Shown piece after piece: positions 2,875 to 60,462 of a stretch of DNA of 64,000 bases. How positions within the stretch are numbered: position 1 is the first letter of the stretch; the number at the start of each line of letters is the position of its first letter. Below the pieces are notes generated by a model. That model had not been told where the DNA came from, did no database searches, and saw only the letters and a list, made by a program, of their open reading frames with translations. The stretch is from Aigarchaeota archaeon (GTDB taxonomy: Archaea > Thermoproteota > Nitrososphaeria_A > Caldarchaeales > Wolframiiraptoraceae). Where the stretch lies: contig JANXDW010000006.1 of assembly GCA_025058515.1 (NCBI GenBank), positions 9,050 to 73,049 of the forward strand, given 5' to 3'. The position numbers and the translations under genes were made by a program.

Positions 2875-5468
2875 ATGGAGATAAGTATTAGAAATCAAAA
2901 TTTAAGATATTCAACAATTATTTTCATACTTATCATATTATCTTACAGTGTGGTGCTGTATTACATATTGCATAATTTTATGGGGTTCCCAGAGATGGCC
3001 TTGGGAGTTGATGCAGTACCTCATTCTGCAAAAATCCACATAATCAAGTCTCTAGGGTTTGAAGGATTCAGATGGTTTCCAACATATTATTTTGGGAATC
3101 CGCATTTTACTTTCTATACACCCTCCACATATATACTTCCTGCAATCGTGACCATTATTCTTGATTTAAACCATCTACAGATCATACAACTTTTAAACTG
3201 GATGTCTTTCTTCTCTGCAATCCTTATTCTAGCTGGGATAATATCATTTCTTTCATACGTAATAAAAGGTAGCAATAAGGTCATGCCAATAATCGGCGCC
3301 AGCCTCTTCCTGACATCTTCTCCAGGTCTAATGGAACCATGGTTATGGGGTGGAAATTTCCAGAATTTCTTACTTTACCAGCTATCCCTTGGAGTCTGCT
3401 ATTAATCGAGAAATGGTTACGAACGAGTAAAAGAATTTATCTGATAGGTTATCTGGTCATCGCCTCTTTCTCTATTATGGGGCATCAAGCAGTTGGTGGA
3501 TTTCTAGTATTTTCAACACTTCTATGGATACTTAGTGATGAGATAAAATGGAAGGTTAAAATGAAGAGAACAGTACTTTTACTGACCTCTTTAGTATGTC
3601 TGACCATTGTATACTTTGTACCATTACTTTACTTCGAGCTGACGACAAAGATACGTCCAGGGATAGTGGAAGATCTACCTTATCCATTTAATATAGGTGA
3701 TTATTTTCCAGTCTTCATGTTGATAGAGATACCTTCACTGCCCATGATCGGTAGTTCTCTACCAGGATCGCCCATACTTCTATTTTTTACATATTATATT
3801 TATTATCTTATAAAGAGAGATCATAAGATCTTTTTGAAGCGAGTAGTCGTTATCTCACTGATTCCAATCTTACTTATTGTACACTTTTTCTTAACTACTC
3901 AAAAAATCGTTCCCTGGATCGCTGGATTTCATCCTGCACGGTATATGGTATTCGTAACAATTTTTTCCTCTATAGTCTTAGGCATAATTTTATCGGATAT
4001 TAGGAGAAAACATCTATATACTTTCCTCATACTGACAATATTAATCATATCTCTTCACTATATTTTTCTTCCATCATATGAACTTCATAAAATGCACTCG
4101 GTAAATCTTTCATCTATAAATGAGTTTAAACTTATCGATGAATTACAGTTATCGATTTTCGGTAATCATTTCCGGATAGGAGGGGTAAAAGATGCCCTAT
4201 TCAATACTATCTCTTTGTTAAAACCGGATTATTACATATCGAGAGGTTATTACGCTCACGGCATATTATATCTTGATTGGCAGTATTGGTTCGAATATAC
4301 TCTATCAAGTCTTCCACATAACCCTAGTAACGAAAATACTTTAATGCATCTTCTCGATTGGGGTTCTATAAGATACTTAGGACTTACCGATTCTGAAGAA
4401 GGCTTTAAAATCGCTGAAGAAAAGTTTAGACCTATTGGTAAACTAGGCGACTTTACGATATTTGAGAACGACTTGGCACCACCTATCTCTGAATTTCTAT
4501 ATGATGGAGCGGTACTGGTTTTCGCCGATTATGAAGGTTACGATGTCTTGTTAAGATCTATTTCCATTAGTAACTATAGTAAACCTGCTCCAATCATCGT
4601 CTGGGCTGAGGGAAGATGTATTGATGATGTTCCAATCGATGTTTTGGAGAAGTTTTCTGTAACAGTTCTCTATAGGTATTGTTATCGAGATAGAGTGAAA
4701 GCTTTCCAGATTCTTGAACACTATGTTTCAGCCGGTGGCAGATTGTTTATAGAGACCATGTCATCTACTGATGAATCTTCTGAGATGCCTTCACCGATAC
4801 CAGTCTCGAAGACCCATAGGGCCATAATAGAAGATGACTGGAACTTTAAGATAGCTGAGCATAGCTTGACAGTCAGTATCTCAAATAATATCTTTTCTCC
4901 ACCAATGTATGATGGTGGACCCTGGGGTGTTAGTTCATCAAATCTAGAATATCTCAGAGATGGGGCTGAGCCTCTCCTGAAATCTAACGGTAGAGTCTTA
5001 GTTGCTTACATTAGATATGGGTATGGAGAGGTTGTCTGGTCTGGGATGAATCTACCATACCATGTTCTAGCATATCAGAATATTGCTGAAGCAGACTTCA
5101 TGAGAAGACTGATAATGTATAATGTGAGTGTTGAGATCGAGCCTGCTCAGATGTATAGAGATTCAGCTACATCTATATTGTTTAAAATACCGTCTAAGGT
5201 CAAAGGCATAATCTTTAGAGAAAGGTATATCTCGAACCTCGTATTTAGCTGGAAGGCTTCAGACTCTAAAGGAGAGCTAGATATTTTTATGATGGGTCCA
5301 GGGTTTAACTATATAGTCATCAAGGATACATATGGGAAAGTTGAAGATATTAGGCTTGTACTAGAGGATGGACCTCTTAGAACCAGCTCGATAATATTAT
5401 CACTCTCTACATTATTCTTACTTGTATACATGTCTCTAGACCATACTAAGAAGGAAAAAAGATCTTAA
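2875..5468 (+). CDS. Large polytopic membrane protein, paralog of 201..2231, encoded as two overlapping ORFs (2875..3405 and 3339..5468). A -1 frameshift at the heptamer A_AAT_TTC (3354..3360) is needed to fuse them into one protein of about 864 aa.
   Basis: Homology to ORF1 runs continuously across the frame change. ORF-A ...EPWLWGGNF followed by ORF-B PEFLTLPAIPWSLLLIEKWLRTSKRIYL matches ORF1 ...GLYGETPHLLGLSLALITVTLFYHHVESREKIYL. Frame B equals frame A minus 1. The slippery heptamer sits exactly at the junction. Confidence 0.5.
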
Positions 5469-5947
5469 CATTTTTACCTCTTTTTTATTTCTAAAAATGT
5501 ATTATCAAATACTGTTAAAGCTTTCACATGGAGGATTATTGACCCAGAATCTGAAGACTGGTCTACAGTAGACGTTGTTATTATAATAGTCTAAAGAATA
5601 GATTCTCTAAAGATGACTTATTGTTCTTCTCAATGAAGAAAGAAGTAGATTTATTTATAGGCTATTCAAATATCGCCTCGGTTGAGGATCTATTAGATAT
5701 AGAAGACTTGGATAAGAGAGAACTCTGTATAAAAATGGTTGGCGTAAGAAGATAGAATATAGTGAAGTCTATAGATTTAAGATAAATCTTCCATTACATC
5801 TAGCATTTCCAGGTCTTCATAGACTTGGTAGAGCACTAGATAGATTAGAACTCAGTCTAATCGAGGTTGAGAAAATATTCAATCTTGAAGATATTATTCT
5901 GAAACATCTAGAGATACAAAGAATACATGCTCGGAAAAGTAGACTAT

Positions 5948-6751: not shown

Positions 6752-7359
6752 GTATATGAAGTAACTCTAGTTTAAAAATCTAAAAATGGTAGATTATCAT
6801 TTTTTACAAAATCTTAAATCATTTATGTAATAATGTTGATTAAACTAACGGTCTACGAAGGTGTGAGTATCTCTCTACTTGTTTCTTCACGATTCGACAG
6901 TTTAACGAGCGTTCTCCATCTTCTTATGATTTAAAAAGTCTATTGATGAAAGTAGGAATTTTGCTGATCAATTATCTAATGATTATGTTGAGTTCTAGGA
7001 ATGAATATGGAGAAAGCATAATCTTCTATCTTCAAGCTTCTCATTGATTTTTACTATTTCTAGTGACGTTAATCACTTTTAGATATTAAGATTAGCAGAA
7101 TCTCTATATCTTTCAAGATAATTTTTCTACAACTTTCATGATAATGAAAAAAGTTATTCTTAAGAGATATTATCTATGTTTTTGATTATAAGGTCTTCTA
7201 TAATAAATAGATCTCCTCTACACTTTTAATGAAATCGTATATTCTTTGCTATTATAGGTCTTCAGTGAAGATAACTTTTATAAATGAGGTTAACAAATTT
7301 ATAAAAAGTTCTTTTAATTTGGCAAAAATGTTATATAATACTAGAGGAGATTATGTTAT

Positions 7360-7503
7360 ATGCAATTAGAGGAGTTTGCATTAAAATTGGGCCTATCCAA
7401 AGAACTGCTAACAATACTATTGATACAAGCAGCGATAACAGCAGTAATGTTAGCTTTAGGAATTGAAGTCTTAGGTACAAAATCTGGTAAAGTACCATCT
7501 TAA
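7360..7503 (+). CDS. Small hypothetical protein (47 aa) with one predicted TM helix; speculative
   Basis: Read directly from sequence: ATG at 7360 preceded by GGAGA about 10 nt upstream. Translation is MQLEEFALKLGLSKELLTILLIQAAITAVMLALGIEVLGTKSGKVPS. Below the 60-aa cut-off of the ORF track. Lies in an otherwise 750-bp noncoding stretch. Confidence 0.2.
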   Translation: MQLEEFALKLGLSKELLTILLIQAAITAVMLALGIEVLGTKSGKVPS

Positions 7504-7505
7504 AA

Positions 7506-8549
7506 CTACTTAAACAATCTTACTTTCTCTAATATTTTTTCAGTTATTAGATCGAAGACATTTATCCAGCCTTTATTATCATTATACGGTAGTCCATCGC
7601 AGAGAAAGTTTGCAGTGTGCTTCATGCTTAGGAAGTCGAATAATTCAATATTCATTCTCTCATTCATATATCTAACAGTCTTGTAAAATCCTAATGATGG
7701 AATAAACAACATAACATAATATTTTCTATCATCGGTCTTCATCTCCAAGTGGCTAAATGGGATGTTAAGCATTGTCTTACGAGATATCTCATCAAAAGAT
7801 GATCCTACTATCAATGGTACTGAGACCAGTTCAGGATTTTCTTTAGGTATCCATAATAACCCATACATGTATATTGTTTTCTTTATTTTTTCATAATGTC
7901 TCTTGATCGTTTGTCTCGTTACATTCAAGTAATTCGCTAGTTCAGTATATTTTACAAAAGCATTCTCATTTAATTTTGCAAGTATCTTTAAGTCTAGAGA
8001 TGTTAGATTCTCGAATCCAGTTGGTATCTCATAAATCTCATGTATTTCTTCACTTTTATGTTCATCCCAATTAAGAGACCACACTCCTCGATTAAAATCA
8101 AAGCAATTAGTTCTAAATGGGATCAATCTTCTATATTCTAATTTATTAATGGTGTACCTTCTAAGTAATTTTAAATCGATTAATCTATCTAGAAAATTTA
8201 TGAATGAGTCTTGGAAAGATGGAGGTATCGAGAATATTGTTAAGAATTTTCTTTCTTTCATGAGGTATGTATAGTAATTTAGGTATGCTCTCTCCCCGAG
8301 TAAGTCTAATAGACTACACATATACTCGAGAGGTAATGATGTTTCTATTAGCACTAGGTATCTTTGTAACCCTAGTAGTCCATAGTTTATTGCTGCACGA
8401 ACTATGAATCCTAGTCTCGGCAATTTCTCCCGTAGAATGTATCTTACAGTCGTTACTGGCACTCCTGTTTCTTTAGAGATCTTTGAATATCTTGGACCAT
8501 AATTCATTAATGCTTTTACAACTTCTCTACTTGGGTCAGTATATTGCAT
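7506..8549 (-). CDS. Transcriptional regulator with two AsnC/Lrp-type HTH modules
   Basis: N-terminal VKALMNYGPRYSKISKETGVPVTTVRYILREKL and a second module DLKILAKLNENAFVKYTELANYLNVTRQTIKRHYEKI both match the AsnC-type HTH pattern (HTH_24-like). Each is followed by about 100 aa of unknown fold. Confidence 0.5.
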   Translation of the reverse strand: MQYTDPSREVVKALMNYGPRYSKISKETGVPVTTVRYILREKLPRLGFIVRAAINYGLLGLQRYLVLIETSLPLEYMCSLLDLLGERAYLNYYTYLMKERKFLTIFSIPPSFQDSFINFLDRLIDLKLLRRYTINKLEYRRLIPFRTNCFDFNRGVWSLNWDEHKSEEIHEIYEIPTGFENLTSLDLKILAKLNENAFVKYTELANYLNVTRQTIKRHYEKIKKTIYMYGLLWIPKENPELVSVPLIVGSSFDEISRKTMLNIPFSHLEMKTDDRKYYVMLFIPSLGFYKTVRYMNERMNIELFDFLSMKHTANFLCDGLPYNDNKGWINVFDLITEKILEKVRLFK

Positions 8550-31450: not shown

Positions 31451-32431
31451 TTGAGAGAGATTCTAGTTCTCGCAGAGCATAGGAGAGGAGAGATCAGAGA
31501 GATAACCTTCGAGATGCTTACGAAGGGTAGAGATATTGCTGAGAAGACAAAATCTGAGCTAGCTTCTATAATCTTGGGAAAGAATATTAAAGATAAAGCA
31601 GAGGTTCTTTCAAGATACTCAGATAAAGTATTAGTGGTCGAGGATGATAGGTTAGAGCTATTCAATTCTGATATCTATCAAGAAGCTCTCTCACACATTA
31701 TAATAGAGAGGAAGCCTTTGATTATCATGATCGGTCATACATCTTACGGGGTTGAGCTAGCTCCAAGCTTAGCGGTCTCTTTAAGCACCCCCCTCGTAAC
31801 AGATTGTTTAGACTTGTTTTTTGAAAACGGTCATCTAACTGCAATACGTCAAATGTATGGAGGAAAGACTTACGCTAAGATAAAAGTTAAGAAGGCTGAT
31901 AGCTACATGGTGACGTTTCGTCAAGGTGTAACCCAGCCGGTTGAAAGAAATTTTAAAGGTGAAATAGTTGAGATACCTTCACCAATATTGAAAGAACCGA
32001 TAAAGAAGAAAGTTTTAGATTATGTTCTACCATCTGTAGGAGAAGTAGATATCTCTTCTGCCGATATATTGGTCTCACTGGGTAGAGGTATCAAAGATCG
32101 GTCAAATATATCTCTAGGTGAAGAATTGGCAAAGGTTCTCGGAGGAGTTCTAGCATGTTCAAGACCTATAGTTGATAAAGGTTGGCTTCCCCGAGATAGG
32201 CAGGTAGGTGCTTCAGGGAAGACCGTTAAGCCTAAACTTTATCTCGCCCTCGGTATAAGTGGTGCATTTCAACACATTGTAGGTATGAAGGATTCTCAAT
32301 TGATAATATCGGTCAACAAAGACCCTAATGCACCTATATTCAACATATCCCACTACGGAGTAGTAGACGACCTATTCAAGATAGTTCCAGCATTAATCAA
32401 TAAGATAAAAGAAGTAAAAAAGATAAAATAA
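31451..32431 (+). CDS. etfA: Electron transfer flavoprotein alpha subunit
   Basis: TTG start abutting the etfB stop. C-terminal FAD-binding region DRQVGASGKTVKPKLYLALGISGAFQHIVGMKDSQLIISVNKDPNAPIF. Confidence 0.85.
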   Translation: MREILVLAEHRRGEIREITFEMLTKGRDIAEKTKSELASIILGKNIKDKAEVLSRYSDKVLVVEDDRLELFNSDIYQEALSHIIIERKPLIIMIGHTSYGVELAPSLAVSLSTPLVTDCLDLFFENGHLTAIRQMYGGKTYAKIKVKKADSYMVTFRQGVTQPVERNFKGEIVEIPSPILKEPIKKKVLDYVLPSVGEVDISSADILVSLGRGIKDRSNISLGEELAKVLGGVLACSRPIVDKGWLPRDRQVGASGKTVKPKLYLALGISGAFQHIVGMKDSQLIISVNKDPNAPIFNISHYGVVDDLFKIVPALINKIKEVKKIK

Positions 32432-32773
32432 ACATACGTTGGAGAAGTTCTTTTAAGAATTTTTAATCTTTAATGTTCTAGATGAAGGTTTATCTTGAAA
32501 CCTATCTAGAGGACGCTTTTAAAGCTTATCTAGATCCATAAGTAGCGAGATAATATCGTCATCCATTATTCATTATTTTTCAGATAAACGAAATTCTTAA
32601 ATGCGATCTTTATTTCTCTATCACCGTGGATGAGATTAACTTTTACTATGGTCTTGAAAAGTATCTTAGAATTCATATTAAAGATAAATATCTTGGAGAA
32701 AAGCTTCATGAAAATACTAGTTGAAGTTGGAGGGTATCTGTAGAGTGGTAATTTAGAGGTTAGGTATAGCAAC

Positions 32774-33727
32774 ATGAGGCTTGTAACTTATGATGAATAT
32801 TTGGAGTTCATAAGGTCACATAAGTACGTCATCATAGAAGGTGAGTACATCCCGATCGGTCAACCTCAGAGGATAAGTGAATACCAGCCAAGAAATTTTG
32901 TTTTAGAGTTTGGTTCTGTCTGGTCTTTTCCAGAGAGAGGAGACTGGGCAACACATAGAGGAGATTACCGAGGAAACTGGGCACCCCAAATTCCTAGAAA
33001 TCTAATAATCCGCTATACTCGACCAGGAGAAACTGTTCTAGATCAAATGTGTGGAAGTGGAACAACTCTCGTTGAAGCGAAGTTGCTTGGACGGAATGCG
33101 ATCGGTGTTGACATCAACTATGAGGCAGTAATCCTTACCCTAGATAGACTTAACTTCAAGTACAATCCACTTAATAATGAGTACAGAGAACCGAACATAC
33201 TAGTTTATCATGGTGATGCGAGAAGACTAGAATTAATCAAAGATGAAACTATAGATCTTATCGCAACCCATCCGCCATATGCGAACATAATCCCCTACTC
33301 TAAGAAGAAGACTGAAGGAGATCTTTCTCGTGTCTACAATCTTGAAGAATACTTAGAAGGGATGAGAGAAGTCGCTAAAGAAAGCTATAGAGTTCTTAAG
33401 CCTGGGAAGTACTGCGCTATACTAATAGGAGATACTCGGAAGCATAGGCATTATGTTCCGATAGCTTTTAGAGTTATGCAAGTGTTCTTAGATGCGGGGT
33501 TCGTCTTAAAAGAAGATGTGATAAAAGTACAATGGAATGTGAAGTCTACTCGTCGAAAGTGGGAGGGGTTAGCGAGAACTGCTGAGCAATACTGGGGAGA
33601 GAAACCAGAAGGAAAACGATACTGGACAAACTTTCTCTTAATCTTACATGAACATCTATTCATATTTCGTAAACCACGAACCGATGAAGACCTAAAGAAA
33701 ATAAGATACAGTTCAAAGTGGTATTAA
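32774..33727 (+). CDS. Solitary N6-adenine/N4-cytosine-type DNA methyltransferase, with the SAM motif before the catalytic HPPY motif
   Basis: WATHRGDY...PQIPRNLIIRYTRPGETVLDQMCGSGTTLVEAKLLGRNAIGVDIN is equivalent to the H..KP..L..VLDPF.GSGTT...GR..IGiE block of N4/N6 methylases. It is followed by DLIATHPPYANI ([DNSH]PPY catalytic motif). No adjacent nuclease ORF. Confidence 0.65.
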   Translation: MRLVTYDEYLEFIRSHKYVIIEGEYIPIGQPQRISEYQPRNFVLEFGSVWSFPERGDWATHRGDYRGNWAPQIPRNLIIRYTRPGETVLDQMCGSGTTLVEAKLLGRNAIGVDINYEAVILTLDRLNFKYNPLNNEYREPNILVYHGDARRLELIKDETIDLIATHPPYANIIPYSKKKTEGDLSRVYNLEEYLEGMREVAKESYRVLKPGKYCAILIGDTRKHRHYVPIAFRVMQVFLDAGFVLKEDVIKVQWNVKSTRRKWEGLARTAEQYWGEKPEGKRYWTNFLLILHEHLFIFRKPRTDEDLKKIRYSSKWY

Positions 33728-33888
33728 CACATTACCTCATACTAAGAAGAAATTATCCAAGGATATCTGTCCAATTAAAATAATCAAGGTTAAAACATTT
33801 AGCTTATCCTCTCCCTTGCCTCTCTTAAGAGTACACAGAATAATTGGATTATCGACTATAAGACAGGATACATAAAAAAGATGATCGG

Positions 33889-35079
33889 CTAGTAATTGTA
33901 GAATCCTCTCCCCACTATTCTTCCAATCCACTTTCTATCTACATACTCTTTCAGCAAGGGGCAGGGATTATACATCTCCATTCTATGCTTCTCGTATAGT
34001 TTGATGAGATTGTTTAAGATGATGTCTAATCCTTTTCTATCTGCGTATTCACATGGTCCTTGAGGCCATCCAGCCCCCAGCTTCATTCCAGTATCTATAT
34101 CATGTGGCTCTGCTACGTTCTCATATACTAGCCATGCCGCCTCGTTTACAGCAACCATCCAAGACCTCTCAACATCGTATTCATCTGATAATTCAAATGG
34201 TATTCTAGGTCTACCCTTCATCCAATCATAGAATCCTAAACCAGTCTTTTGACCAAGCTTCTTCTGGTTTACAAGCGGCTCTATCACTTCTAGACAAGGC
34301 TTGAACCTCTCTCCATAAGCTTCGTAGAGAACTCTTCCTACCTCATAAACTATGTCTAATCCTACGTAGTCAGATAGCTCAAACCATCCCATAGGGAACC
34401 CTCCAGCATACTTTACAGATGAATCTATTCCTTCTTTACTTGCTTCTCCTCTATAGTATGTCCAGTAGGCTTCATTGAATACTGCACCTAAGATCCTATT
34501 GACTATGAATCCTCTTACATCTTTCTTGCAGACGATAGGGGTCTTACCGAGGAACCTGCTCAACTCAACGATCTTACTTAGTGTTTCATCACTTGTATCC
34601 TCGCCTTTAACTACTTCTATCAACTGCATTATCTGAGGTGGATTAAACCAGTGCATTCCAATAACCTTATCAGGTCTACTTGTAGCTCTACCCATCTCAG
34701 TAATGCTTAGAGTAGATGTATTGGAGGCTAGTATCGTATGCGGTTTAGATAATCTATCAACAGTTGAGAAGATCTTCTTCTTAAGCTCTAGATTCTCTGG
34801 AGCAGCTTCTATAACTAGATCTACATCTCTAACAGCCTCCTCATAAGAGGTCGTAGCTTTTATTCTCGCTAAAGCTGCTTCCGCATCTTCTCTTCCAATC
34901 CTCTTCTTCTCTACAAACTTACTCAAACTCCACTCAATATTCTGTAAAGCTTTTTTCAATATCTCATCACTTACGTCTACGATGTTCACTCTATATCCTT
35001 TCATAGAGAAGACTTGAGCTATTCCATGACCCATGGCCCCCGCTCCTATGACTGCGATACTCCTTATCTCTACATTCAA
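33889..35079 (-). CDS. 3-Hydroxyacyl-CoA dehydrogenase
   Basis: Rossmann IAVIGAGAMGHGIAQV; a C-terminal 6PGD-like dimerisation domain. 396 aa. Confidence 0.85.
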   Translation of the reverse strand: MNVEIRSIAVIGAGAMGHGIAQVFSMKGYRVNIVDVSDEILKKALQNIEWSLSKFVEKKRIGREDAEAALARIKATTSYEEAVRDVDLVIEAAPENLELKKKIFSTVDRLSKPHTILASNTSTLSITEMGRATSRPDKVIGMHWFNPPQIMQLIEVVKGEDTSDETLSKIVELSRFLGKTPIVCKKDVRGFIVNRILGAVFNEAYWTYYRGEASKEGIDSSVKYAGGFPMGWFELSDYVGLDIVYEVGRVLYEAYGERFKPCLEVIEPLVNQKKLGQKTGLGFYDWMKGRPRIPFELSDEYDVERSWMVAVNEAAWLVYENVAEPHDIDTGMKLGAGWPQGPCEYADRKGLDIILNNLIKLYEKHRMEMYNPCPLLKEYVDRKWIGRIVGRGFYNY

Positions 35080-35532: not shown

Positions 35533-36699
35533 TCACCTTTTAAGGATTGTAATAAATGCGTAGTGACCTGTACCCCCTATGTTGTGAGCTAGACCTACAT
35601 AATTCTTCATCGGGGCTTGGCGAGATCTCGGCTTGACTTCTTCACGTAGTTGCTTAGTCAACTCTACGATCATCGAGACCCCTGTAGCTCCTATAGGGTG
35701 ACCTTTGGCCTTCAGCCCCCCATCTATGTTTACCGGCTTCTCTCCACCTATCTCGGTCTGACCTTCTCTAACCATCTTGTATCCTTCACCTCTACTGCAG
35801 AATCCTAAGTCTTCATAAGCTAGTAGCTCAGCGATAGTGAAGCAGTCATGAACTTCTGCAACATCAACGTCTTTCACCTCGACCCCCGCCATCTTGTAAG
35901 CTATTCTAGAAGCTTTAACAGCTGCATCTAATCCTATAAAATCGTTTCTATAAGATAGTGTGCCAGTTCCAGAAGATGATGCTATTCCGCCTATCCAGAC
36001 AGGTGTATCTATCTTCAATTCTTTAACTTTGTCTTCTGAAGCCAATACTACAGCAGCGCTTCCATCTGTGATAGGAGAGCAATCGTATAATTTCAGAGGC
36101 CATGCGATGACATGTGAAGATAAAACATCTTCAACAGTTATCTCTTTCTGGAATTGAGCAAGAGGGTTCATGGCCCCATATCTATGATTCTTTACAGCTA
36201 CTAGTGCTAGATCTTCTTCAGTCGCTCCATATCTATTCATGTATGCTGTAGCGTAGAGTGCATAGTATCCTGGAAATGTTAACCCGAAGTTCTCGAACTC
36301 CCATAGATATGATCCAGCTCTACCCATAAGCTCTATAGCAGTAGAGGTATCGACCTCTCTCATCTTCTCTACGCCTATAGCTAGAGCTAGATCTACGTAT
36401 CCACTCGAGACCGCAGTATATGCTGAAAAAATAGCTGCACTACCTGTTGCACATGCAGCTTCAACTCTCATCAACCCCTTCCCAGTCAATCCACAGTATT
36501 CAGCTACTGCAACTGCTGGAAGAGGTTCTTCATACCATATCCCGATAGATCCTAGAGATACGTAAGAGATATCTCTCGATGTTATTCCAGCTTCTTCTAG
36601 AGCTGGTTTAATAGATTCGAATGCAAGCTCTCTTACATTAACATCTTGTCTATCTCCAAACTTGCTGTGACCTACTCCTATTACCGCAACCTTCCTCGT
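35533..36699 (-). CDS. Thiolase (acetyl-CoA C-acyltransferase, SCP2-type). The conserved N-terminus extends 70 codons upstream of the TTG start in the ORF track, with an apparent ACG initiation codon.
   Basis: In-frame translation upstream of the called TTG gives ...TRKVAVIGVGHSKFGDRQDVNVRELAFESIKPALEEAGI... (thiolase N-terminal motif). Active-site CATGSAAI and the C-terminal GHPIGATG are present. The frame is closed by a TGA overlapping the hydratase stop. Confidence 0.75.
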   Translation of the reverse strand, partial: TRKVAVIGVGHSKFGDRQDVNVRELAFESIKPALEEAGITSRDISYVSLGSIGIWYEEPLPAVAVAEYCGLTGKGLMRVEAACATGSAAIFSAYTAVSSGYVDLALAIGVEKMREVDTSTAIELMGRAGSYLWEFENFGLTFPGYYALYATAYMNRYGATEEDLALVAVKNHRYGAMNPLAQFQKEITVEDVLSSHVIAWPLKLYDCSPITDGSAAVVLASEDKVKELKIDTPVWIGGIASSSGTGTLSYRNDFIGLDAAVKASRIAYKMAGVEVKDVDVAEVHDCFTIAELLAYEDLGFCSRGEGYKMVREGQTEIGGEKPVNIDGGLKAKGHPIGATGVSMIVELTKQLREEVKPRSRQAPMKNYVGLAHNIGGTGHYAFITILKR

Positions 36700-60372: not shown

Positions 60373-60462
60373 GGGCCGGTAGTCTAGAGGTTATGACGCC
60401 GCCCTCACAGAATTTCTTCGAGGAGACGGCGGAGGACGTGGGTTCGAATCCCACCCGGCCCA
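60373..60462 (+). tRNA. tRNA-Val (anticodon CAC) with a 17-nt intron at the canonical 37/38 position; CCA not encoded
   Basis: Acceptor GGGCCGG/CCGGCCC, D-arm GTCT..TGAC, anticodon stem CCGCC/GGCGG with loop CTCACA-[intron GAATTTCTTCGAGGAGA]-C, T-arm GTGGG TTCGAAT CCCAC, discriminator A. An A/T-rich box ACATATAT lies about 25-30 nt upstream. Confidence 0.8.

Follow-up and report, generated by a model that had tools for sequence, protein, structure and literature searches.

Locus organization

The locus described here raises the question of how a gene for a DNA methyltransferase came to stand alone among genes of fatty-acid degradation in a hot-spring archaeon, and whether it still encodes a working enzyme. 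The gene lies in a 1457-bp segment of the window (the whole stretch of DNA that was analysed, 64 kb in length). The features of the segment and its boundaries are as follows.

31451..32431, + strand: etfA (PF01012 and PF00766), left boundary of the insertion site
32432..32773, no strand: AT-rich upstream spacer, based on composition, the ORF list and similarity searches
32566-32775, - strand: small flanking ORF without a Pfam match
32774..33727, + strand: methyltransferase CDS, 317 aa, based on the ORF listing, Pfam PF01555 and PADLOC MTase_II
32921..33001, + strand: block W50-N76 ahead of motif I, dense in family-invariant residues
33041..33067, + strand: motif I, SAM-binding loop D90-Q-M-C-G-S-G-T-T98, based on alignments and invariance
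33266..33280, + strand: motif IV, predicted catalytic loop T165-H-P-P-Y169, aligned to SPPY of PDB 2zie
33728..33888, no strand: downstream spacer of 161 bp, up to the stop codon of the convergent hadh, based on the ORF listing
33737-33931, - strand: small flanking ORF without a Pfam match
33889..35079, - strand: 3-hydroxyacyl-CoA dehydrogenase gene, hadh (PF02737 and PF00725), right boundary

The sequence-only reading had placed a 317-aa ORF between etfA and hadh and had doubted the two small ORFs beside it. The former is real (32774-33727, + strand), and its product is 100% identical to an NCBI entry named 'DNA methyltransferase' from a Nitrososphaeria MAG; the small ORFs lack Pfam matches and are uncalled in the public record. 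The upstream spacer, with a GC content of 0.29 over the 400 nt from 32400 to 32799, holds no + strand ORF of at least 40 aa, no gene and no recognisable remnant, and its 69-aa ORF on the - strand has no Pfam match. The methyltransferase presumably has its own promoter there. Neither spacer is similar to related loci, the upstream one having been checked at the nucleotide and the protein level. The downstream spacer lies where the closest relatives of the gene carry that of a partner protein of about 200 aa. The neighbouring thiolase gene, whose start codon reads ACG, is possibly defective.

The absence of a restriction endonuclease (REase) partner, claimed earlier from the ORFs, was upheld. 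All called genes within ±10 kb belong to metabolic or housekeeping Pfam families, and none of them is a REase by Pfam. Over the 64-kb window, tblastn and six-frame HMM searches detected no DpnII-family gene, no homologue of the ~200-aa partner and no member of c4, a group of remote relatives of that partner from three loci (L002, L012, L014). The tblastn queries without a significant match in the window were DpnII-family REases, Dam methylases, the 208-aa partner and the recurring neighbour-protein clusters of related loci (c4, c21, c29, c43, c44); the cassette of a Dam-type PF02086 methylase and a PF04556 REase is likewise absent from it. A degraded REase in the flanks was rejected on the negative tblastn and six-frame HMM results.

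Family assignment and topology

The PADLOC MTase_II model PDLC03376 covers the protein over its full length, with a colinear match of 253 bits to residues 33-300. Pfam PF01555 (N6_N4_Mtase) matches in two swapped stretches at 96.4 bits, its cut-off being 26.7. Among solved structures the best sequence match is TTHA0409 (PDB 2zie, E = 3.6e-12), a putative beta-class modification methylase of Thermus thermophilus, which aligns as a permutant: query residues 145-225 correspond to chain residues 25-104, and query residues 41-115 to chain residues 196-266. Both halves of the catalytic domain align, in reversed order and at low identity. Both motifs quoted in the sequence-only reading are present. 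VLDQMCGSGTT (residues 88-98) is motif I and aligns with motif I of TTHA0409, MboIIA, CcrM and Trm11; D90, M92, G94, G96, T97 and T98 are invariant in 42 sequences. THPPY is motif IV, and T165, H166, P167, P168 and Y169 are invariant in the same 42 sequences, REase-linked and solitary members alike. Histidine stands where Asp, Asn or Ser is usual (SPPY in TTHA0409), and the PPY core is kept in 42 of 42 aligned members. A full-text literature search for 'HPPY' with 'methyltransferase' returned no relevant paper on HPPY methyltransferases, and no characterised member of the clade was found in the literature.

Also invariant in the 42 sequences are W50, S51, F52, R55, G56, W58, T60, H61, R66, G67, N68, W69, P71, R75 and N76. 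The block they define matches the stretch that precedes motif I in beta-class enzymes (within the aligned region 196-266 of 2zie) and may contact DNA or the flipped base; most of it (residues 50-67) is covered by the low-pLDDT segment 36-67 of the model of the free protein. The N-terminal 45 residues are predicted to form a short helix and a hairpin. All family-invariant residues (65 of 65) are kept in the window copy.

Motif IV follows motif I by 73 residues, which is not the beta-class order IV-TRD-I of Malone and Bujnicki. The sequence-only reading was therefore right that the SAM block precedes the PPY block, opposite to the beta class, as the PF01555 halves are swapped and the same holds relative to 2zie. 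The topology is an already described one and not new. Samokhina and Alexeevski (bioRxiv 10.1101/2023.12.13.571470) defined class E by a SAM motif less than 100 aa ahead of the catalytic motif, detection by B- and D-type profiles and the lack of a TRD between the motifs, with M1.BcnI and M4.BstF5I as examples. To judge from motif order, the 73-aa spacing and the swapped pieces of the beta-type profile, the window protein fits that class.

Base composition

The sequence-only reading judged the coding sequence to be richer in G+C than its neighbours and proposed windowed GC and codon usage as a check. This impression was not borne out. The gene has a GC content of 0.404, compared with 0.387±0.024 across 46 window genes (z = 0.73) and 0.389-0.442 in the adjacent beta-oxidation genes; neither GC3 (0.358, z = 0.70) nor the codon-usage likelihood (z = -0.49) stands out. 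In tetranucleotide distance, 35% of equal-sized windows deviate more than the whole 1457-bp segment and 14% more than the CDS alone. Foreign composition was accordingly rejected, all four measures lying within the spread of the window genes. The uniformity speaks against recent acquisition from a donor of different composition; any transfer was therefore either old or from a similar donor, and the gene should not be taken as the sign of a recent, compositionally foreign island.

The etfA-hadh junction in related genomes

Syntenic relatives were located through HADH homologues of 78-81% identity, which mark the nearest genomes available. In all five syntenic or near-syntenic loci the methylase is absent from the junction. 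Two of them (L047, L048) show exactly the same gene order, and no more than 168 bp separate the etfA stop from the hadh stop; two others (L045, L046) carry a different pair of genes for 62-aa and 205-aa proteins in the hadh-etfA gap; the fifth (L044) is without etfBA as well, and its MAG carries a 60%-identical methylase elsewhere (L022). Since the same gene order exists with a gap of only 168 bp, the methylase is, from these comparisons, most readily read as a lineage-specific insertion, not demonstrably a recent one. Uniform composition and conserved presence at the junction had been named in the sequence-only reading as arguments against a recent insertion: the first was found, the second was not, and the comparison of synteny favours insertion as such.

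The search for insertion scars revealed no integrase or transposase, no clear target-site duplication, no inverted terminal repeats and no terminator-like sites. The sole flanking repeat is an A-rich imperfect direct 25-mer (32400-32424 and 33858-33882, 76% identity), which is not convincing as a scar. Nucleotide similarity to 50 related loci ends at the ends of the CDS, and the intergenic DNA of the syntenic relatives is too diverged to align. Nucleotide homology accordingly gave no cassette boundaries.

Relatives and linkage to restriction-modification genes

Relatives with 54-78% identity are scattered over many thermophilic archaea and some bacteria; those in Aquificaceae, Armatimonadota and Caldimicrobium share 54-62%. 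The neighbour-joining tree is incongruent with taxonomy: Nitrososphaeria members occupy four separate clades, and REase-linked members are scattered across the tree. The closest methylases (76-78% identity) lie in unrelated genomic contexts.

A DpnII-family REase adjoins a family member in 11 loci, sometimes together with a Dam-type methylase. An adjacent PF04556 REase was found in L019, L020, L021, L024, L025, L026, L028 (match of 256 bits), L030, L036 and L037, and a Dam-type PF02086 methylase occurs also in L016, L025, L028 and L036. Fusobacterium vincentii (L049) combines Dam, a DpnII REase, an Mrr-like gene and the family methylase. Two Caldimicrobium loci share the same synteny, one with methyltransferase and REase (L030), the other with the methyltransferase alone (L029). 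In about ten loci, including most of the closest relatives, the methylase is followed by the ~200-aa protein, which is of no known family; within the closest clade it lies immediately downstream in L001, L052/L053, L117/L118, L119/L120, L121 and L027.

Solitary copies elsewhere show dN/dS values of 0.04-0.10. Where they retain a conserved position, in lineages other than that of the window (L050/L051, L007/L011/L043, L008/L015/L017), dN/dS is 0.065 for L050/L051, 0.099 for L007/L011 and 0.088-0.094 for L008/L017/L015.

A viral or plasmid vector was rejected, as phage sequences, PLSDB and IMG/VR hold only distant relatives with partial alignments at about 27-51% identity. The single exception in that search was a mislabelled Fusobacterium chromosome.

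Comparison with known enzymes

In four loci (L025, L028, L036, L049) family members fill the slot of DpnA (M2.DpnII) beside Dam and the DpnII REase. DpnA (PDB 5hek) shares the family PF01555 with the window protein (E = 4e-4), but is of canonical beta class, with motif IV before motif I, whereas the window protein is permuted. The three-gene GATC systems of DpnII/MboI type, in which DpnA is the second methylase, also comprise a Dam methylase and a REase, and the window copy stands without both. The class E enzymes M1.BcnI and M4.BstF5I, likened here by description, resemble it in having the SAM motif first, a gap of less than 100 aa, no TRD in between, and detection by beta-type profiles in two swapped pieces; they recognise CCSGG and GGATG, and the window protein differs from them in its HPPY motif IV. 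Persistent orphan methyltransferases of archaea have been described in the Dam-like, GATC-specific group HG3 of Nitrososphaerota (PMC10609329). Family members that are likewise solitary, of type II and kept within lineages are those of L050/L051, L007/L011 and L008/L015/L017 (dN/dS below 0.1); in contrast to HG3, the window methylase is not a PF02086 protein, and its family is patchy and laterally transferred.

Alternative explanations

It is very unlikely that the gene encodes a mis-annotated RNA methyltransferase, either Trm11/UPF0020-like (tRNA m2G) or an rRNA amino-methyltransferase, whose high conservation across thermophiles would then reflect housekeeping RNA modification. Archaeal Trm11 (PDB 6zxw, 5e71) does share a colinear Rossmann fold in which a (D)PPY-type motif IV comes after motif I (6zxw, E = 1e-8, residues 71-189), it heads the Foldseek matches, TIGR01177 is the best NCBIfam row, and PF01170 (UPF0020) reaches 33.2 bits, over its cut-off of 22.3. 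The majority of family copies are solitary, and the 60-78% identity seen between archaeal phyla exceeds what is usual for a restriction-modification (R-M) methylase. TIGR01177 (tRNA guanine-N2), however, scores 55.4 bits against a cut-off of 316.55 and covers residues 82-203 only, the Trm14 model reaches 31 of the required 280 bits, the Pfam hits at E <= 1 include neither THUMP nor any other RNA-binding domain, and DNA-methylase models score 3-8 times above RNA-methyltransferase ones. Foldseek returned from the PDB only generic Rossmann-fold methyltransferases, with a TM of only 0.43 for Trm11; as it aligns sequentially, it cannot reward permuted beta-class enzymes, and its ranking is not decisive. 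The context of the family is R-M-like and not tRNA-related, with DpnII REases and Dam methylases as repeated neighbours, and its patchy distribution, its tree at odds with taxonomy and the absence of the gene here in syntenic relatives speak against this reading. The UPF0020/Trm-like alternative raised in the sequence-only reading thus falls far below the DNA-methyltransferase models and under the Trm11 family cut-off, and the annotation should be that of a solitary DNA methyltransferase, not of an RNA methylase. Extremely unlikely is a decaying, catalytically dead R-M remnant, kept only because the nuclease disappeared too short a time ago. The window copy lacks the partner gene that most of the closest relatives have, histidine replaces D/N/S in motif IV, and the ACG start of the possibly defective thiolase gene hints at a degree of gene decay, or at an assembly error, in the MAG. 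Against decay, the ORF is full length with all family-invariant residues intact, and strong purifying selection acts on the solitary copies of other lineages. HPPY is invariant throughout the family, whether or not a REase is linked, and is therefore the regular motif rather than a sign of damage. The window copy is intact and probably active.

Vertical inheritance of an ancestral gene at the junction, with loss in the relatives and no insertion, is quite unlikely. It would agree with the host-like GC, GC3, codon usage and tetranucleotides, with the lack of mobility genes and of clear target-site duplications, and with a Bathyarchaeia genome (L024) in which a family member and its REase lie within a homologous beta-oxidation cluster. 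The L024 methylase, however, is only 59% identical and of another clade, although the flanking beta-oxidation genes are 61-74% identical. The junction is empty of the methylase in L044-L048, cleanly so in the two loci with the 168-bp gap; the closest methylases stand in unrelated contexts, and the Nitrososphaeria members are split over four clades of the tree.

Proposed function and target site

The gene is thus likely to code for a working type II DNA amino-methyltransferase that is solitary (an orphan) and stems from a mobile R-M module; we infer activity, target base, site and role from sequence comparison. The suggestion of the sequence-only reading, an orphan methylase or the remnant of an R-M or mobile insertion in a fatty-acid locus, gains support from the R-M-linked family, the absent partners and the 168-bp gap in L047/L048. 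The enzyme would bind SAM through the DxMCGSGTT loop and flip the target base into the THPPY pocket. Methylation would then take place in a short palindrome, most likely at N6 of adenine, otherwise at N4 of cytosine. Its ancestor was probably an R-M module moving between thermophilic archaea and bacteria, from which the methylase gene alone would have reached, or outlasted its partners in, the convergent gap that separates etfBA from the operon hadh-thiolase-ECH-ACAD. The insertion breaks no transcription unit and leaves the beta-oxidation operons intact. Having no nuclease partner, the enzyme could only mark the host chromosome, and its selective value might lie in protection against GATC-type restriction enzymes or in an epigenetic role. 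Genes of this kind are very common, and this one is an unexceptional example: a survey counts about 2.7 type II methylase genes per archaeal genome, with far fewer recognised REases (PMC10609329). Orphan type II methyltransferases being common in archaea, it has little significance for this genome.

GATC is the best guess for the target site, but as the closest clade is tied to the ~200-aa partner and not to DpnII-type enzymes, it is extrapolated from relatives that are only 56-61% identical. In the window GATC is under-represented, with an O/E of 0.71-0.77, and GANTC (O/E 0.58), GTAC, CCGG and CGCG are low as well. Under-representation was uninformative as a clue to specificity, since other motifs are low and GATC is also low in the loci of relatives with and without the methylase.

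The ~200-aa partner has no Pfam, PADLOC or PDB-fold relative and contains a D...(D/E)xK-like pattern; a small winged-helix (wHTH) controller sometimes accompanies it and the methylase. These observations raise the possibility, put forward tentatively and judged less probable than not, of an uncharacterised R-M family in thermophiles of both domains, in which a permuted methylase with histidine in motif IV is normally co-transcribed with the ~200-aa protein as candidate REase, and from which solitary copies are retained. Such copies would then be epigenetic or anti-restriction methylases under purifying selection, and the partner, unstudied so far, could be a new restriction enzyme. Modest wider interest attaches to the family for its cross-domain spread among thermophiles, the repeated loss of the nuclease partner and the invariant HPPY. 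A gene of family PF09520 near P0041 (printed as 'HinfI', also 'RE_TdeIII') adjoins a fragmented second methylase; this HinfI-type REase was dropped as a clue to specificity, as it is probably part of the system of that other methylase.

Locus and gene neighbourhood

The methylase gene lies at the convergent junction of two genes of fatty-acid degradation:

31451-32431, +, etfA, left neighbour; a 342-bp AT-rich spacer follows
32774-33727, +, methylase, a single ORF of 317 aa; a 161-bp spacer follows
33889-35079, -, hadh (3-hydroxyacyl-CoA dehydrogenase), convergent right neighbour

Beyond etfA are etfB and an acyl-CoA synthetase gene, and beyond hadh the genes of a ChsH2-like protein, thiolase, enoyl-CoA hydratase (ECH) and acyl-CoA dehydrogenase (ACAD); the sequence-only reading was therefore correct in placing the methylase inside a beta-oxidation cluster. 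The two small minus-strand ORFs beside it (69 and 64 aa), which that reading had doubted, match no family and are absent from the gene calls of the public record. The higher G+C content claimed for the gene was not borne out. Its GC content is 0.404 (immediate neighbours 0.389-0.442; z = 0.73 against 46 long window ORFs, mean 0.387±0.024), within the spread of the window genes. GC3 (0.358, z = 0.70) and the codon-usage log-likelihood (z = -0.49) are typical, and the tetranucleotide distance is unremarkable for the whole 1457-bp segment and the coding sequence alike. Because the composition is host-like, the insertion is not demonstrably recent.

Protein family and topology

The Pfam N6_N4_Mtase profile matches with 96.4 bits (cut-off 26.7 bits) in two stretches, residues 30-119 corresponding to the C-terminal part of the profile and the PPY-motif region to the N-terminal part. 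The same swap is seen against the solved beta-class protein TTHA0409, in which query residues 145-225 align with chain residues 25-104, and residues 41-115 with 196-266. Motif I (D90-QMCGSGTT-98) is therefore N-terminal to motif IV (T165-HPPY-169), with 73 residues between them, as had been noticed by eye. In motif order the protein departs from the beta class, of which it is a circular permutant. It fits the topology of class E of a recent classification, with M1.BcnI and M4.BstF5I as experimentally confirmed examples (bioRxiv 10.1101/2023.12.13.571470). A PADLOC type II methyltransferase model is colinear with residues 33-300 (253 bits), so REBASE-derived models already include this family; the protein probably works like a type II amino-methyltransferase. 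An alignment of 42 sequences has 65 invariant columns, including THPPY, with the motif IV histidine, and a dense block from W50 to N76.

A better match to an RNA methyltransferase (UPF0020/Trm-like) would have changed the assignment. Trm11 is indeed the top match (TM 0.43) in a structure search with the AlphaFold model (pLDDT 75.6, pTM 0.79). That search returned generic Rossmann-fold methyltransferases only, as expected because a sequential aligner was faced with a permutant. UPF0020 scores 33 bits and TIGR01177 (Trm11) 55 bits, far under its cut-off of 316, and Pfam found no THUMP domain; the protein thus lacks what defines Trm11. The RNA-methylase models are much weaker than the DNA-methylase models.

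Solitary state and insertion

The absence of a restriction endonuclease (REase) partner was confirmed. Searches of the 64 kb with tblastn and six-frame HMMs found no DpnII-family gene, Dam-type gene, winged-helix gene or relative of the ~200-aa partner described below, and all genes called within 10 kb on either side belong to metabolic or housekeeping families. Since no cognate REase is adjacent, as it is in a type II restriction-modification (R-M) system, the methylase counts as an orphan rather than as an R-M system.

Syntenic relatives were located via the hadh product (78-81% identity). Two loci (L047, L048) share the gene order at the junction: lactamase-fold gene, malate/lactate dehydrogenase, aconitase, ACAD, ECH, thiolase, ChsH2 and hadh on one side, and etfA, etfB and, further on, acyl-CoA synthetase on the other. 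There the stop codons of hadh and etfA are just 168 bp apart, with no methylase between. Two loci of another Nitrososphaerota lineage carry a different insert in the gap equivalent to window positions 32432-33888:

L045, 8372-9170, gene pair of 62 and 205 aa
L046, 8372-9170, gene pair of 62 and 205 aa

This pair has no match in Pfam or PADLOC. A further locus (L044) is rearranged, the synthetase gene abutting hadh with neither etfBA nor methylase between; its MAG has a 60%-identical methylase elsewhere (L022). The closest methylases (L050, L051; 76% identity) lie between sulfatase and diphthamide-synthase genes. Parsimony favours a single gain in the window lineage. The convergent hadh/etfA gap apparently tolerates insertions and, given the different insert in L045 and L046, seems to be a recurrent landing site for small accessory cassettes. 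Of the proposed insertion into a fatty-acid locus, the splitting is upheld by the absence of the gene from this junction in L044-L048, and the foreign composition is not. No integrase or convincing target duplication was found around the insertion, nor nucleotide homology to related loci past the methylase coding sequence.

The thiolase gene (35536-36699, -) has an intact frame, in which 386 aa align with the L047 thiolase at 84% identity, and no gene call in the public record. The codon aligned with the homologue's ATG start is ACG (36697-36699), and the first canonical start is ~70 codons downstream; the start codon may have mutated, initiation may be non-canonical, or the assembly may be wrong here.

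Relatives and their partners

Many homologues exist, and they are conserved to an unusual degree, with 60-78% identity across Sulfolobales, Desulfurococcaceae, Acidilobaceae, Thermofilaceae, Bathyarchaeia, Methanomethylicia, Nezhaarchaeales, Jordarchaeales, Marsarchaeota and Hadarchaeales, and 54-62% in MAGs classified as Aquificaceae, Armatimonadota and Caldimicrobium. ORFs were called in 43 related loci and the neighbouring proteins clustered, which gave two recurrent partners, a PF04556 REase and a ~200-aa protein.

The DpnII-family REase (PF04556, up to 256 bits) adjoins the methylase in ten loci (L019, L020, L021, L024, L025, L026, L028, L030, L036, L037), and a Dam-type methylase (PF02086) is also present in L016, L025, L028 and L036. 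A Fusobacterium vincentii chromosome has Dam, the REase, an Mrr-like gene and a short methylase (55% identity) in a row. This cassette, with its short HPPY-methylase (L049; NZ_CP084075.1, 656137-664784), is on a hardly annotated 2.1-Mb F. vincentii record, filed in a plasmid collection as 'plasmid pSB055A' and evidently a chromosome. In Caldimicrobium, the flanks are identical in two genomes and the sole difference is the REase, present in L030 and missing in L029. The REase-linked members are spread over the neighbour-joining tree, whose branching departs from taxonomy; this fits a mobile module repeatedly losing its nuclease.

On a 2-Mb Bathyarchaeota contig (L024, 2931-12730) the REase and a 59%-identical methylase lie inside a homologous beta-oxidation cluster (acyl-CoA synthetase, ChsH2, thiolase, ECH, ACAD, hadh; 61-74% identity to the window's). 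Since the two methylases fall into separate clades, the insertion there seems to be independent, and possibly a coincidence.

The ~200-aa partner is directly downstream in most of the closest relatives of the window methylase, starting 0-50 bp after the methylase or overlapping it:

L052 (likewise L053), 6960-7586
L121, 4964-5590
L119 (likewise L120), 4993-5646
L117 (likewise L118), 5010-5585
L001, 2194-2735, in two pieces
L027, ~6890-7528, Armatimonadota; the methylase-partner pair lies between pyrB and pyrC

Remote relatives of it adjoin the methylase in L002, L012 and L014. The family comprises 75 clusters, all annotated 'hypothetical', and matches nothing in Pfam or PADLOC. AlphaFold models the protein with very high confidence (pLDDT 93.9), yet no PDB fold matches it (best E = 0.14). 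E66, K81, D85 and H106 are invariant, and the pattern D85...(E/D)99-x-K101 recalls, and may suggest, a PD-(D/E)XK-like nuclease; the protein is a candidate restriction endonuclease of a new family. In L001, L021 and L119/L120 a small gene for a winged-helix protein lies ahead of the methylase.

Close upstream of the pair in L052 (2934-5277; L053, same coordinates) a second methylase, broken up into three ORFs, and after it a PF09520 REase, named 'HinfI' or 'RE_TdeIII' in different outputs, form a small defence islet. The outer ORFs match weakly (152 aa, UPF0020, E = 8.5e-4; 142 aa, PF01555, E = 6.4e-3), and the middle one (273 aa) has no Pfam match.

Function and specificity

The window ORF is not truncated, and none of the invariant residues has been lost. 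Solitary copies syntenic between related genomes are under strong purifying selection (dN/dS 0.065 for L050/L051, 0.099 for L007/L011, 0.088 for L008/L017, 0.094 for L008/L015, 0.041 for the Caldimicrobium pair); the test is not directly applicable to the window gene, because substitutions at synonymous sites have reached saturation between it and its closest relatives.

To our knowledge, every characterised DpnII-family REase cuts GATC. This REase is the sole neighbouring R-M gene in L019, L021, L024, L026 and L030, so that there the methylase must presumably protect against it. GATC is thus the best guess for the window methylase, with roughly even chances, and the modification would most likely be m6A. 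Its own clade is tied to the ~200-aa partner, not to the DpnII-type REase. Oligonucleotide statistics (O/E 0.71-0.77 for GATC, 0.58 for GANTC) do not discriminate among candidate sites, as several other palindromes are also depleted. The finding is an ordinary one; the invariant motif IV histidine and the ~200-aa partner are mildly interesting by-products.

ARAGORN reported zero tRNAs across the whole window; the Rfam tRNA model matches 90 nt at 60373-60462 (+) with 61.7 bits, probably an intron-containing archaeal tRNA.
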